Assembly: GCA_040758355.1 (NCBI GenBank)
Contig: JBFLWF010000014.1
Span: 6,173 to 70,172, forward strand
DNA from: Nitrospirota bacterium
Lineage (GTDB): Bacteria; Nitrospirota; Thermodesulfovibrionia; Thermodesulfovibrionales; Dissulfurispiraceae
Direction: 5' to 3'
Length of the DNA: 64,000 nt
Shown here: in pieces, positions 56,901 to 62,900 of the stretch
Position numbering within the stretch: position 1 is the first letter of the stretch
Layout of the letters: every line of letters starts with the position of its first letter
Program-made: the position numbers

Positions 56901-59900
56901 CGGATATAAATACGATCGTGGATTCTTTGATGGGAAGGCACAGCATAGAGGCATGCGAGATAGATACGGCAACCATTGCAGGGAATACAACCATGTCGCA
57001 TATATTCTGGGGACTGAATCCCGGCTCCATAAGGGAAGAGCCTTACATCCCCACCCTTAATCAATTCCCGCAGTGGAAGGGAGGGACAGCAAAGCTTTCC
57101 ATAAATCCACAATCGCCTGTTTACACAGTCCCTTGCGTTGCAAGCTATGTGGGAGGAGATATTGTTGCAGGAGTGCTTGCATCAAAGATGCACAGAAATC
57201 ATGAGATAGCACTTTTTATGGACATAGGCACCAACGGAGAAATAGCCATAGGCAATAACGAATGGCTCATGACCGCTGCATGTTCTATGGGTCCATGCTT
57301 TGAAGGAAGCGGCATCAGGTGCGGGATGAGGGCAACATCTGGTGCAGTAGAATCTGTAAAGATAGAACCAAATACTTATGAGCCTCAGATAAGCGTTATT
57401 GGCGGAGGCCATCCAATGGGTATTTGCGGCTCAGGCATGATCGATGCCATATCGGAGATGTTTTTGACGGGTGTAATAGACCAGAAGGGCAAGTTTGTCA
57501 AAGGAAAGACAGACAGGATAAGGGAAGGCGAAGAGGGGTTGGAGTTTGTGCTTTACAGGGATGAAGCCCATCATAAAGATATAGTGCTAACAGAGGTCGA
57601 TGTAGAAAACATAATCAGGGCAAAGGCAGCACTTTATGCAGGAATAAAAACCATCCTGAGCGAGGTCGGATTTACTATGGATGTCATAGAAAAGGTCTAT
57701 ATAGCAGGAGGCTTCGGAAATTACATCAATGTCGAAAGGGCAGTAATACTCGGCATGCTCCCTGATATTCCGAAGGAGAGATTCGTATTCATGGGCAACA
57801 CATCGATCACAGGAGCTTATCTCTGCCTGCTTTCGGAGGAATTGAGAAAAGAGGCCGAGGATATTGCTTCAAAGATGACATACATAGAGTTGTCCGTTTA
57901 CAGGAGCTTTATGGACGAGTATATGTCAGCACTCTTTTTGCCGCATACCGATATGAGCCAGTTCCCGACAGTAGCGGATATGATAAAATAAAACATGAGC
58001 GAATATTCGAAATTCGATTCCGGAGATAATACCGAATTCATCTGCCCCGCATGCGGTACTGTTCTTACGGAACAGGAGCGCGTTGAAAGAGATGGGGGAG
58101 GCTGGAACTGCAAATGCGGCGATTTCATTCCAGAGAATATAGCAATAAACCCTTACAAAGGCTTATCAAACCAGCACAAGCAGAATGCTGGATGGCGATA
58201 GATCATTTTTTATTCCCCATAATAACGTCTTTGCCTAATATCAAAATCTGATCATTGAGGTTTTCGAGGGCTGCGGTGAGGCTGTCATTGACAATGCTAC
58301 CCAGTGCCTTTAGCTGTATCGATTCTCCCAGCATGCCGATGATCAGAGATGCTACACCCGCTTCTCCGGTTGTCCTTGCGACACTGCCATTCGCAGTTCC
58401 TTTCCATAGCATGTTCCATTTTCTGTCATACACCTCGCAGAGCAATTCCACCGTGGCTGTGTGTTCAGAAAGCGTAGCTCCGCCGTATATGAATTTTGTC
58501 GAGGGACCGAATTCAATGATAATTATTCTCTGGATATCGGGCATGATTTCGGTTTTTTTCTGAATGAAGGAAACCTCTTGGAAAGCCTTTTTTAGCGACT
58601 CTATTGCACTTGCTTCAAGGGCCTTGCCGATTTCGAAATTAAGGGTGCCGGATGGTGTTTCTTCTGACATTAGATAATTTTTCGTTGTGTCGCTCAGGAA
58701 AAGGCCTGCTTTTAATGGCAGCTTTTCTGCTCTTTCCCGGAACTTTACCGAATCCTGTTTTACAGTGATGGTACTGATGCATCCCAGCAAAAGGAATATA
58801 ACAATCAATAGCAACTGCACGGCTAATAATAGATGTCCTCTCTTACTCATTACAAATCTATACCAGAGGATTTGGATGTTGTCAAATTTGTACTCCTGTC
58901 TTTTATCTTTCTTTGTAAGTCAAAGGCTTAAGAGGTTTATGTTATAATTCACAACAATGGGCTTCTTTCATGACATAAAAAGGGATTTACATGCAGTGTT
59001 TGAGCGCGACCCTGCTGCGCGGAATACCCTTGAGGTGATTCTTGCATATCCTGGTTTTCATGCCATCTTCATTCACAGGATAAGCCATTCCTTGTGGAAG
59101 CTCAAAATTCCCGTATTGCCGAGGCTTCTATCACACATTGCAAGATTTCTCACAGGCATAGAGATTCATCCTGCAGCAAAGATTGGAGCCGGCTTTTTCA
59201 TTGACCACGGAATGGGAGTTGTGATTGGCGAGACAGCAGAGATTGGCGAGGATGTCTTGTTGTATCAGGGCGTTACGCTGGGAGGCACTGGAAAGGAGAA
59301 AGGCAAGAGACATCCGACCCTCGGAAACCATGTTGTGGTGGGTACCGGAGCGAAGATCCTCGGGCCTATAAGAATAGGCGATTATGTTAAGATAGGTGCA
59401 AATTCCGTTGTACTTAAGTCTGTTCCCGACTATTCTGTCGTGGTTGGCGTCCCAGGCAAAATCATCAAGAAAAAGGTCATGCGTGTTGTGCAGGAAGGTA
59501 TCGAGGAAGCCCTCGACCATGTAAGGCTTCCTGACCCTATGGAAGAGGAGATACTGGAACTGAAGGAGCATATCGCAAGGCTTGAAAACAGGATAGAGAG
59601 GCTGGAAGGAAAAGGAGGAAATGTGAAGATATTCAATACCATGACAGGCAAAAAAGAGGACTTCAGCCCGATTGCAAAGGGCAGGGTCGGCATGTATGCC
59701 TGCGGTGTTACTGTATACGACTACTGCCATATCGGCCACGCAAGGAGCGCTGTGGTCTTTGACGTTATAAGGAGGTATTTCAAATACAGGGGATTCGATG
59801 TCAAGTATGTAAGGAATTTCACTGACATCGATGACAAGATAATAAGGCGTGCAAATGAAGAGGGCATTACATGGGATGCTGTTGCAAAAAAATACATTGA

Positions 59901-62900
59901 TGAATACTACGCCGACATGGACAGGCTCGGTGTTGCGAGGGCGGATGTGGAGCCAAAGGCAACAGAGCACATAAAAGAGATGATAGATGTTATCAGCGCC
60001 CTTATCGAAAAAGGCTATGCATACGAGGTTGCCGAAGGTGAGAATAAGAGCGTGTACTTTTCTGTAGATAAATTCCCTGAATACGGCAAGCTTTCTAAAA
60101 AAGAGCAGAAGGAGCTTCTTGCCGGTGCACGCGTTGACGTGGACGAAAGGAAGAAAAGCCCTGTGGATTTCGCATTATGGAAGGCATCAAAAGAAGGTGA
60201 GCCGTGGTGGGATTCTCCGTGGGGAAAAGGAAGGCCAGGATGGCACATCGAGTGCACTGCAATGGTGATAAAGCATCTTGGTGAATCCATTGATATACAT
60301 GGCGGCGGCGCAGACCTCATATTCCCGCACCACGAAAACGAGATTGCGCAGTCAGAGGCATATACAGGCAAGCCTTTTGCAAAGTACTGGGTACATAATG
60401 GTTTCATTACTATCGATAAGGAGAAGATGTCAAAGTCCCTCGGAAATTTCTTCACTATAAGGGAGATTCTCGATAAGTATGATGCAGAGGTTATAAGGCT
60501 GTTTATCCTTTCGAGCCATTACAGAAGTCCAATAGAGTTTTCCAATGAACAACTGCATGATGCAGAGTCTTCTCTGGATAGATATTACAGCACAATGTCG
60601 AGGATTGATGATTTCCTGTCGCATGCCCCTGAGACTGCAAAAAAAATTCAGGCAGCGGAAATTGAAGCCGTTCTCGATAAATTCAAAGACAGGTTCGAAG
60701 AGGCCATGGATGACGATTTCAACACAGCACTGGCAATCGGGCATATTTTTGAGCTTGTGAGAGAAGTGAATAAGTTCCTTGATTCAAAGCCATCAGGAGA
60801 AGCAGCAAAGGCATTGATAAAGAGATCGAAAGATATATTCGAAACAATCGGTGATGTCCTCAATCTCTTTAACAGGACGCCTGCGCAATGGAATATTGAC
60901 CTTCTTAAGAGCAAGAAAATCCCTTTGACCGAGTCCGAAATAGAAAGCAGGATTGAAGAGAGAAGAATTGCGAGGCAGAACAAGGACTGGGCAATGGCGG
61001 ATTCCATCAGAAAAGATCTTGAAGGCAGGGGAATCATACTTGAGGATAAAAAAGACGGGACTTCGTGGAAGGTGAAGATAATATCTATAGCCGTCCTTGC
61101 CCTTTCAGTATCTTTATAAAAAGTTTTACAAGCTCTAAATCGAAATCACCTTTTTCAGTGGTCTCTTTCATGATCTTGTCCAGGGCGTTGAAAGGAGTAT
61201 AGGTAGTTCTGAATGGACGTGGCGTGGTCAAGGAATCATAACAATCGACGATTGACGTGATCTTGCCAAACTGATTGATAAAGGCTCCTTTTAGACCGTA
61301 TGGGTAGCCGGTACCAGATAGTTTTTCGTGATGTTGTTTCACGGCAATGATAGATTCGCTATGCAGTCCCGACTGACTCAGGATATTGATGCCATCAGCG
61401 ACATGCTTCTTCCATACGGCAAACTCCTCGTCTGTCAAACGCTCTCTTTTATACAGTATCGATGGCGGTATATTTTTCTTGCCGATATCATGCAGCATAG
61501 CTCCAAGGGCCAGCTTTTCTATCTGGCTCTGGTTCATGCCCATCGCAAGCGCCATAGCCGCCGACAGCACCGATACATTTAGGGAGTGGTTGTAAATATA
61601 CATGTCACGGGCGTTTTTGGTGAGCATTGTGCTGAGCGCTGTGTCTTTCTGTTTCAGTATGTTTATTACCTGATTAGCCGAGCTTACCACATTGTCAATG
61701 TTCTGGGCATTGCCAGGATCCGATAGAACATCCCTGACGCTCATTTTGGCGCATTCCTTGACGGTCGTGAGCTTAGTTGCACTATCCGATGCTGATTTTT
61801 TTGATTGCGAGAAGAGATATTCCCTATACAGCTTCAGATCGGACACTTTAATCGCCAGGTCGCCGTCTGCATTGCAGATAGCATTCGTAACAGGCACGGG
61901 CTTCTCCGGCAGAGTTTCGATAAGAGGCTCATAGCGCAGGTTCGAAACCTTGTATATGCTGAAATTCACTTGTGATCCAGCAGTAAAAATAAGCCTGCTG
62001 ACATTATGGTACGCCTCCTTCTCTTTGGAGTATGAGGCATAGGCTTTTTTCGCGGACTCATCTTCTGCAGGTTTTTTATCAAAATACTGATTGACCTTTG
62101 CAGGTTCCCCTTCAACATACAGAAACACGATGCCTTTGCTTTTTAACTCAGCCTTGACAGCATCATCAAATTTCTGCCATTTCTTCAAAGCGCAGGAATA
62201 GGTAGTGCCATCTCGTTTGTATACGTCAAAAGGAACGCTTAATCCCACAGGAAACCTTTCGATGCTCATCATCACCATTGTTTTTTGTGGATCCTTCATA
62301 TCAGCCATACATTATCCCCCTGAATTTATATATAGCTTCATACTGCTCATTTCTAATTGAAAAATTGAGATAATTATAGCACAATTCACGTTACAAATTT
62401 CAGGAAGAAGGGATTCGGGAGCATGGTTGTCCGGAACAATTCATTCTGAGTTTTAAAAATCCCTTTTTTTACGTCCTCAATATCAGCTATAATTGCTTAT
62501 ACATCGCTTATCGCCGCATACTTGCCTGCTATACGAAAACAATTGCATTATTTTCTGGGAAGGGTGAAAGATAAAAATGAAGGATAAAGGCGGAAAGACA
62601 GAGTGGCTCTATGGCTTTAATCCTGTTCTGGAAGCTATCAAATCAGGCAGAAAGATAAAAACTGTCTATATCTCTAAACAAAGGCATGAGCAGATCCAGA
62701 AGATTATCGAAATGGCAAAGACAGAGGGCATCCCTGTAGAATTTGCTGAAAGAGACTTTTTCGATACCAGATTCCATAAAGGGCATCAAGGTGTTGCGGC
62801 GGTTGTTGAAAAAAGGGGATTTCTAACCATAGACAAGCTTTTAGCCATCCCTGAAAAAAGAGAGGAATCAGCTTTTTTTCTCATCCTCGACCTTATAGAA

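Follow-up and report, generated by a model that had tools for sequence, protein, structure and literature searches.

The locus at 58957-61119, on the plus strand of a 64,000-nt stretch of DNA (the window) from a Nitrospirota bacterium, carries serine O-acetyltransferase (CysE) and cysteinyl-tRNA synthetase (CysRS) in a single open frame of 720 codons. This raises the question of whether the two enzymes are made only as one protein and what is gained by joining them. Profile searches matched residues 7-168 to the whole of TIGR01172 (positions 1-162 of 162; 249 bits, cut-off 210.65) and residues 224-706 to positions 2-465 of 466 of TIGR00435 (593 bits, cut-off 340), and the Pfam assignments agreed with these NCBIfam calls on both halves. 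The initial annotation had described one frame made of a complete CysE and a complete CysRS, as this full coverage confirms. It had also named them the only cysE and cysS of the genome (99% complete), in which tblastn with each half found no second copy, a hexapeptide protein giving one weak match (E 7e-5).

Conservation suggests that both halves remain active. CysE residues D83, H84 and K117-T121 (including R118 and H119) were invariant in 134 fused genes; we take D83/H84 to be the catalytic Asp-His pair and R118/H119 the serine-binding Arg-His pair. A degenerate CysE half was ruled out by these motifs and by a low dN/dS for the domain (median 0.06 over 14 within-genus pairs). The zinc ligands and the HIGH and KMSKS motifs of the CysRS half are intact, with C249, H258, H261, C433, H458, E462 and KMSKS 99-100% conserved among fused genes. 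Since the stop codon of close relatives falls at about residue 709, the last 11 residues are private to this gene, and residues 710-720 had a pLDDT under 50 in the structure model. In two genomes (G043 and G006) rlmB starts directly after cysS, and its position after cysE-cysS is common to B. subtilis and to f16, a family outside the class.

Features of the fused locus and its surroundings, in window coordinates.
Feature	Position	Strand	Evidence
Extended -10 promoter-like box (TG-n-TATAAT), 8 nt before ATG	58940..58948	+	Sequence
Short (truncated-isoform) serine O-acetyltransferase domain, residues 1-175	58957..59481	+	TIGR01172 over cut-off, motif conservation, dN/dS
CysE C-terminal heptad helix, residues 194-217, predicted three-helix coiled coil	59536..59607	+	Model, heptad conservation
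Putative internal Shine-Dalgarno site AAAGGAGG in codons K219-G220-G221	59611..59618	+	Strongest SD of the gene's start-like codons
Putative internal in-frame GTG start, codon 223, first CysRS residue	59623..59625	+	Start codon conserved in order
Cysteinyl-tRNA synthetase, residues 223-709	59623..61083	+	TIGR00435, motifs, model match to 1u0b_B
11-residue private C-terminal extension and stop, overlapping end of convergent gene	61084..61119	+	Relatives' stops, low pLDDT
HD-GYP-type protein gene between cysS and rlmB, neighbour outside the system	61085..62308	-	PF13487 HD_5
rlmB, usual gene downstream of cysE-cysS cluster	62577..63326	+	TIGR00186 over cut-off

Of the 151 genomes sampled within the order Thermodesulfovibrionales, 110 had one frame running through the junction, which rules out a sequencing or assembly artefact, and all 68 matches from other orders of the class were fused. 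No fusion was found in the 100 genomes searched from other classes, so that its reported confinement to the class stands among the genomes searched, apart from two Bacillota-like strays met in protein databases. Among the best 150 of 1.84 billion representatives, no fixed fusion in another phylum appeared beyond P0099. Nine long CysRS matches contained no CysE domain, and a one-piece tblastn match in Acetoanaerobium proved to be two genes in one frame separated by a stop. The statement that the two parts always lie apart in other classes was not borne out, cysE lying directly upstream of cysS, unfused, at six of seven f16 loci; the seventh begins 70 nt from its contig end. Sequence comparison indicates that the class ancestor already had the fused gene. 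Unfused states lie inside fused clades, and their grouping in a single clade was rejected (p-AU 2.6e-5). Loss or splitting off of the cysE half occurred on at least four occasions, and both genes were kept but split in only one lineage (f4 g11, four genomes). Where cysE is missing, in f12 and G011, 10 of 14 cases, counted by eye, have a cysE-type -10 box at 32-39 nt upstream of the cysS start. MetX as a replacement for CysE was rejected in f10 (0 of 4) and was likewise absent from this genome.

The nearest known relative of this arrangement is an operon rather than a fusion. The B. subtilis cluster ispD-ispF-gltX-cysE-cysS-mrnC-rlmB shares the order cysE-cysS-(x)-rlmB with this locus and encodes a short, unfused CysE whose tail shows the same heptads; the cysS start falls in or near that tail. 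B. subtilis makes two proteins from overlapping frames, whereas here there is one frame with its own -10 box and no T-box. A title by Gagnon et al. (1994) is reportedly connected with the B. subtilis cluster. T-box control in firmicutes is described in PMC2940859. In this genome the T-box model RF00230 found nothing (0/1; 5 of 14 control genomes were positive), which gives no sign of a T-box-controlled cysES operon. The search of titles and abstracts, which touched few subscription journals and no supplements, yielded no published account of a CysE-CysRS fusion, and the words "fusion" and "fused" are absent from the main text of PMC13040420, on short-type CysE. Both enzymes are familiar, as is the pairing of their genes; a fixed fusion, a two-start architecture and their sealed, split or deleted derivatives were not found in the literature searched.

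The segment between the two domains had been called a heptad-like linker. A heptad segment it is, with hydrophobic residues at positions 195, 199, 202, 206, 209, 213 and 216 in 81-100% of the 134 fused genes and a modelled helix at residues 194-216, but it corresponds to the native C-terminal helix of short-type CysE and not to a linker. That helix is shared with the truncated-isoform CysE of the S. aureus and M. tuberculosis type, for which PMC13040420 describes a predicted trimer with its tails wound into a helical coil. Like that isoform, the fused CysE is without about 75 N-terminal residues, its alignment starting at residue 80 of 1sst_A. A trimer model placed residues 195-217 within the interface and scored 0.93, against 0.00 for the best of three controls; among structures already solved, 20 of 30 pairs and 1 of 23 single chains attained that mark. 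Contact agreement was at least 86% and pLDDT at least 82 between runs, values in which already solved CysE trimers were possibly remembered. The CysRS half of the model matched the E. coli class I enzyme (1u0b_B, E 6e-54; TM 0.92 to the target), with which it shares fold, zinc and catalytic motifs. E. coli CysRS is a monomer, and here a predicted trimerising enzyme of 222 residues precedes the synthetase. In the full-length model (pTM 0.68) residues 150-197 and 218-220 were mostly below a pLDDT of 50; the model is an alignment-based fold, a single-sequence fold reaching a pLDDT of only 38.

Burial of the CysK-docking end of CysE in the joint was a further claim, and in the full-length form the tail does continue into CysRS, so that the free C-terminal Ile by which CysE-CysK complexes are recognised is absent. 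According to PMC13040420 the S. aureus and M. tuberculosis CysEs end in such a free Ile, whereas here the tail runs on. The loss of a docking site does not follow: the fusion probably destroyed none, because K, A or N is the last residue of the nearest unfused CysEs, and among 53 CysEs from adjacent Bacillota cysE-cysS pairs, judged by eye, Ile is terminal in only five. A shift of the Ile to the end of the fusion was ruled out (14 of 129 fused proteins, against 12 of 39 unfused in-class).

The two ends of the CysE half differ in their translation signals. Its ATG has no Shine-Dalgarno (SD) sequence, and no space for a leader separates the -10 box from it; since the box lies so close and no SD is present, the mRNA is probably leaderless or has a leader of 1-3 nt. 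Two-hexamer promoter scanning did not list this box, yet of 122 fused genes 87 carried a -10-like box at 3-14 nt upstream of the CysE ATG, as against 176 of 1742 long ORFs in a crude count of the genome background, and only one of the 122 had an SD of -7 kcal/mol or stronger there. At the junction, GGAGG is followed after 4 nt by GTG (59623), and this SD is the strongest among the 34 in-frame start-like codons of the gene, as scored with the canonical anti-SD, the 16S 3' end not having been found in the assembly. The junction SD was the strongest internal site in 72 of the 110 fused genes of the order; GGAGG with a 4-nt spacing occurred in 69 of them, and GGAGG with 4 or 5 nt preceded 13 of 28 real cysS starts of unfused relatives, the same geometry.

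Codon choice points to selection on this site. Codon 223 was ATG in 92, TTG in nine, GTG in seven, GTA in one and CTG in one of the 110 genes, a start codon in 108, and the gene with GTA has a GTG one codon earlier. Where Met was replaced, GTG or TTG was used in 16 of 18 cases, as against 11 of 115 at eight other Met-majority columns, with the caveat that a single-step change from ATG to a Val codon can give only GTG. In family f5, Leu223 was TTG in 9 of 10 genes (next of 35 Leu columns 0.27, median 0), a preference which, kin not being independent, may have one origin kept since. Ile, common at this position in other orders, never occurred in the order. GGA was the codon of Gly220 in 43 of 47 genus representatives and that of Gly221 in 31 of 42; no other of the 56 Gly columns was so biased towards GGA (next 0.44, median 0.18). 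Synonymous resampling gave a weaker SD than the actual one in 88 of the 110 genes and in 51 of the 63 genera. The signal was weak in families f3, f4, f5 and f7; in f5 the SD was weaker than under resampling (-6.5 versus -7.5), and G100 had none. Because synonymous choice is biased at both the SD and the start, the junction DNA appears to be under constraint beyond that of the protein. The description of the locus as one polypeptide therefore holds for the frame and probably not for the product, the conserved SD and start codon making a CysRS-only product likely.

Other orders of the class seem often to have lost the internal start, the junction having no start codon in 25 of 44 genes. Most genomes with such a sealed junction gave one match to the junction query, so the fused form is presumably their CysRS. 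Fused CysRS alone can presumably serve the cell, and free CysRS would not be needed class-wide, given the sealed junctions.

Taken together, these findings suggest an ancestral fusion whose one mRNA would yield both a trimeric CysE-CysRS and a free CysRS, an account that we consider probable and whose two products are suggested by codon choice alone. An old overlapping cysE-cysS pair of the Bacillota kind would, from tree and synteny, have lost its separating stop in the class ancestor. In this order one transcript, starting from the -10 box just 5' of the ATG, would be read in two ways. Initiation at the SD-less ATG would give the 720-aa protein, predicted to trimerise through the CysE beta-helix and C-terminal coiled coil and to carry three CysRS on short flexible GKGG tethers; ribosome entry at the internal GGAGG/GTG would give a free 498-aa CysRS. 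Supply of the essential synthetase could in this way be independent of the weak 5' start, and several lineages could delete the cysE half. Nested in-frame genes such as infB, cheA and clpB give a full-length and a C-terminal product from one frame; the mark of such genes, DNA-level conservation of an SD and start codon within the frame, was seen at this junction. Here, unlike there, the parts were once separate enzymes, and the putative internal start is a former gene start that sister orders have lost. Long and short forms from one frame are likewise described for SpaO in PMC13059759. What joining the halves does is the least secure step: most likely it places a cysteine-inhibited enzyme beside a cysteine consumer. 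Direct channelling between the halves is impossible because O-acetylserine needs CysK/CysM, encoded elsewhere, to become cysteine. The archaeal transsulfursome SepRS-SepCysS-SepCysE (PMC5688128, PMC5424206, PMC8762117) also links cysteine synthesis physically to tRNA-Cys charging, but there a tRNA-bound intermediate passes between consecutive enzymes, whereas CysE and CysRS are not consecutive and share no homology with that system.

The fusion may instead be a neutral accident of an overlapping pair, bringing no functional coupling, the internal start being the old cysS start still in use. We take this seriously while leaning against it. Overlapping genes of this kind, the cysS SD falling within the tail of cysE, are frequent (53 adjacent pairs), stray fusions such as P0272 arise in that setting, apparently there by a frameshift in the cysE tail, and the repeated loss or splitting of the cysE half fits as well. 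Against it, a single lineage retains both genes in split form, and none of the 53 adjacent Bacillota pairs was fused. With 148 amino-acid changes across eight tail codons in 70 strong-SD genes, a neutral link would lead one to expect about 8-9 stop gains, a suggestive but rough count, inflated by indels, conditioned on fused genes and open to cysE losses that could have begun with a stop.

A tentative idea is allosteric coupling: a ligand of CysRS (cysteine, Cys-AMP or uncharged tRNA-Cys) would adjust CysE by way of the coiled coil, in place of the T-box/CysK control of relatives. It would suit the missing T-box and leader space, the rarity with which the link is broken and a distance of 29-33 residues from the DP motif to CysRS in 125 of 134 fused genes. 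The full-length model nevertheless gave no confident CysE-CysRS packing, junction residues vary among fused genes, and surplus free CysRS would dilute the sensor. Extended to the whole class, as a selected bifunctional enzyme whose trimer senses cysteine or tRNA-Cys charging via a coiled-coil stalk in place of T-box and CysK control, with the second start setting the ratio of sensor to free synthetase, this remains speculative to the same degree; sister orders without the second start would then translate with a purely trimeric CysRS.

That only the full-length fusion is made seems improbable. GGAGG and Met/Val/Leu223 would then be kept for protein reasons (a Gly-Gly hinge and a hydrophobic first strand) or for ribosome pausing at the domain boundary; residue 223 is indeed hydrophobic in all 134 fused genes, and the sealed junctions imply that one product is enough. 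Protein reasons do not account for the synonymous constraint at SD and start (GGA and TTG, above), and a pause site leaves the TTG/GTG preference and the missing Ile codons unexplained. Very unlikely is a free CysRS from proteolysis, which puts no constraint on codons, or from an internal promoter, which would also keep the SD and start under selection but for which -10-like boxes in the 200 nt before the junction were scarce, scattered and not enriched (10 hits in 110 genes).

Within this one class the stages of a gene fusion form a natural series around an essential gene: cysE and cysS adjacent, fused with an internal start, sealed, split, or with cysE deleted. The fusion would imply a trimeric class I synthetase, and a 710-aa fused member, named Dissulfurispira thermophila at its source, provides a cultured test case for protein-level coupling of cysteine synthesis and charging. 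Because the annotation of fused genes reads simply cysteine--tRNA ligase or hypothetical protein, the cysE of such genomes is likely overlooked in metabolic reconstructions.

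The fusion gene reads without interruption over its whole length, with residues 7–168 matching the cysE profile TIGR01172 and residues 224–706 the cysS profile TIGR00435, each above its own cut-off in a profile search, which bears out the initial annotation of a single frame joining a complete CysE (serine O-acetyltransferase) to a complete CysRS (cysteine--tRNA ligase). Its claim of a sole cysE and a sole cysS also stands, since a search of this 99% complete genome with each half found no second full copy and matched only that half itself, save for one weak hexapeptide match. 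One CysK/CysM gene sits on a different contig. Active-site motifs of both halves are 99–100% conserved in 134 fused genes, and 14 within-genus pairs give a median dN/dS of 0.06 (CysE) and 0.08 (CysRS). An alignment-based structure model of the fusion (mean pLDDT 84, pTM 0.68) shows the beta-helix, a helix at 194–216 and a CysRS part matching 1u0b_B, the interdomain region being of low confidence. Both halves are intact, and we infer that both are active.

Features at and around the fusion gene
Feature	Position	Strand	Remark
AcsV/RACo-type corrinoid activator gene	56111-57991		upstream of fusion gene
TG-n-TATAAT -10-like box	58940-58948	+	upstream of CysE ATG
CysE-CysRS fusion gene	58957-61119	+	720 codons
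Junction sequence	59611-59625		AAAGGAGG, 4 nt, GTG
Out-of-frame ATG-TGA	59621-59626		overlaps internal GTG, 2 nt past GGAGG
HD-GYP-type gene	61085-62308	-	between cysS and rlmB; 35-nt overlap with 3' end of fusion gene
tRNA cluster Thr-Tyr-Gly-Thr	63451-63827		downstream of rlmB; ordinary

Because rlmB comes next after the fusion gene in the close relatives G043 and G006, the HD-GYP-type gene looks like a recent insertion, adding 11 residues to the fusion. The corrinoid activator gene also stands directly upstream of a stand-alone cysS in the cysE-less family f10 (loci L121, L124), so this synteny is conserved across cysE loss.

The fusion is real and class-wide. Source names of the sequences fit the class name Thermodesulfovibrionia, which comes from the initial annotation. 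Among 151 sampled genomes of the order Thermodesulfovibrionales (loci retrieved for 148), the junction is read through in one frame in 110; cysE and cysS are adjacent but split in four, all of genus g11 in family f4; and cysS lacks an adjacent cysE in 32 (f10, 14; f12, 13; f4 genus g36, 4; and genome G011 of f11). The rest comprise one locus ended by a contig edge at the junction, one frameshifted within CysRS, and three genomes without a retrieved locus. TIGR01172 has no match in the 14 f10 genomes (e.g. L117, L121, L124), none of which shows any CysE match; MetX was found in 0/4 tested, and each holds one CysK/CysM. Within f12 plus G011, 9/13 carry another, lower-scoring cysE, mostly adjoining a cysK. 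One fusion-bearing genome has a second, unfused cysS (L114, contig G058:C19), which groups with f12 and probably reflects misbinning of the contig or a transfer. In the other orders of the class a junction-spanning query matched 68 of 73 genomes, all 68 in one frame with no stop.

Outside the class, 96 of 100 genomes were matched; among the matches listed, no single one spans both halves, and the scores of the other 62 rows are too low for any fusion. In another class, family f16 has the unfused order ispD-ispF-cysE-cysS, the same as B. subtilis; its cysE (L151-L154, L160, L169) bears a long low-complexity C-terminal extension (371–420 aa in all), and the cysE stop overlaps the cysS start in three loci. 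Only one protein among the best 150 of 1.84 billion representatives covers both halves. Querying long proteins with the CysE of B. subtilis gave at least 120 matches, and 57 proteins with a CysRS domain (56 new ids and P0083) were placed by their nearest relatives; among the matches listed, 55 of these are nearest to class members (65–100% identity). P0083 is source-labelled Alphaproteobacteria, has a CysRS 79% identical to that of a member of the genus studied here, and probably comes from a mislabelled bin. The other two are Bacillota-like strays, the defective P0324 and P0272 (a 717-aa protein with 10 members, closest to genome locus L247). In the genome nearest to P0272 (83%), which bears the title uncultured Desulfotomaculum sp., cysE and cysS overlap and are unfused; P0272, if not an assembly error, is an independent Desulfotomaculum-like fusion, apparently produced when the cysE tail was frameshifted. 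Of the 80 loci in that scan, 53 are adjacent cysE-cysS pairs, 0/53 fused; its sole fused locus is titled Nitrospirae. Ten proteins of 504–610 aa with hexapeptide and PF00291 domains (P0290, P0293-P0295, P0297, P0298, P0300, P0312, P0347, P0356) are probably CysE-CysK fusions. Taken together, these searches indicate that, among the genomes and proteins searched, this class is the only one in which the fusion is fixed, as first proposed.

The two halves had been described as joined by a heptad-like linker burying the CysE end that docks into CysK. The heptad is confirmed, but it is no added linker: the unfused CysE of B. subtilis finishes with this DP-helix heptad too, and the segment is CysE's own C-terminal tail. 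The same long C-terminal helix is described, in a passage of PMC13040420, for a truncated CysE isoform predicted to form a trimer with coiling tails. A three-copy model of residues 1–222 scored 0.93, whereas none of three controls rose above 0.00, although, CysE trimers having been solved, the prediction may reproduce those known structures; the score mark was attained by 20/30 solved pairs and 1/23 single chains. At least 86% of contacts agree between runs, pLDDT is at least 82, and heptad positions 195–217 fall in the modelled interface. Docking to CysK requires a C-terminal Ile, which the same paper reports for S. aureus and M. tuberculosis CysE. This Ile is missing in 48/53 adjacent Bacillota CysEs (counted by eye) and in the nearest unfused CysEs; the tail does run into CysRS, but the fusion probably buried no docking end.

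Genome-wide, AGGAGG precedes an in-frame start-like codon at 54 of 390,869 interior codons. Codon 223, at the junction, is ATG in 92 of the 110 fused genes of the order, TTG in 9, GTG in 7, and GTA and CTG in one each; where non-Met it is start-like in 16/18, versus 11/115 at eight other Met-majority columns. In family f5, TTG encodes Leu223 in 9/10, whereas its share never exceeds 0.27 in the 34 other Leu columns. Bias toward GGA over 56 Gly columns (median 0.18) is highest at Gly220 (0.91), followed by Gly221 (0.74). The junction Shine-Dalgarno (SD) is stronger than synonymous resampling in 88/110 genes and 51/63 genera, kin not being independent. An SD of -7 kcal/mol or stronger, computed against an assumed canonical anti-SD, occurs at 84% of junctions, compared with 7% among 3755 further start-like codons inside the genes. 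Weak junction SDs occur in f3, f4, f5 and f7, that of f5 being weaker than its resampled mean. Since other orders carry Ile and Leu by non-start codons at position 223, Met is not required there by structure alone. Outside the order, 25/44 sampled junctions lack any ATG, GTG or TTG in the stretch that runs from four codons upstream to one codon downstream, and this sealed fusion must be the CysRS of those genomes, as there is mostly one match per genome. The junction is a predicted translation start, under selection in this order; of the "one polypeptide" proposed earlier the fused frame holds, and the single product probably does not, codon constraint supporting a second start. The out-of-frame ATG-TGA, shared by three members of the genus but missing from G006, is probably incidental.

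The 5′ CysE start is the opposite of the junction: an SD of -7 or stronger occurs in 1/122, and a -10-like box lies 3–14 nt ahead of the ATG in 87/122, against a crude genome background of about 10%. No T-box was found in the genome, and no internal promoter enrichment ahead of the junction of fused genes.

Two trees, both fast and without a mixture model, give the same picture. In the larger, a CysRS tree of 132 rows (at least one per genus), the class forms a single clade with support 91; fused lineages are basal, and unfused members nest among them at four places: f10 by f1, f12 by fused G100, G011 within f11, and g11 plus g36 within f4. With the 46-row tree, grouping all 12 unfused rows in a single clade can be rejected (p-AU 2.6e-5). 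In cysE-less f12 and G011 a -10-like box lies 32–39 nt before the cysS start in 10/14 genes (counted by eye), the arrangement that loss of the cysE half from between promoter and junction would leave.

From this sequence evidence we infer that one near-leaderless mRNA with two starts probably gives a trimeric CysE-CysRS when read from the 5′ ATG and, when entered at the internal start, free CysRS. That the link is simply neutral is somewhat less likely than not: neutrality would predict about 8–9 stop gains in the tails of 70 genes with a strong SD, and a single lineage retains the two genes in split form; yet the underlying count is rough, inflated by indels and conditional on the genes being fused, and a stop could have been the first step in three cysE losses. 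Allosteric coupling of the halves is a little less likely still. Both explanations address why the halves are linked, not whether, and are compatible with two products from one mRNA. Channelling from CysE to CysRS is excluded, because CysK/CysM acts between them (a pathway passage of PMC2940859).

The fusion is apparently undescribed: titles and abstracts of the literature searched yielded no description, and term look-ups in portions of PMC13040420, PMC5424206 and PMC8762117 returned no passage on it. The architecture is already in databases, unremarked: two atlas clusters, one with 90 members and one with 55, have both Pfam families and plain names. The fusion shows no new chemistry and is notable to synthetase and gene-fusion specialists. 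The two enzymes and their gene pair are known; apparently new here are a fixed fusion whose internal start is under selection in this order, and its sealed, split and deleted forms in relatives.
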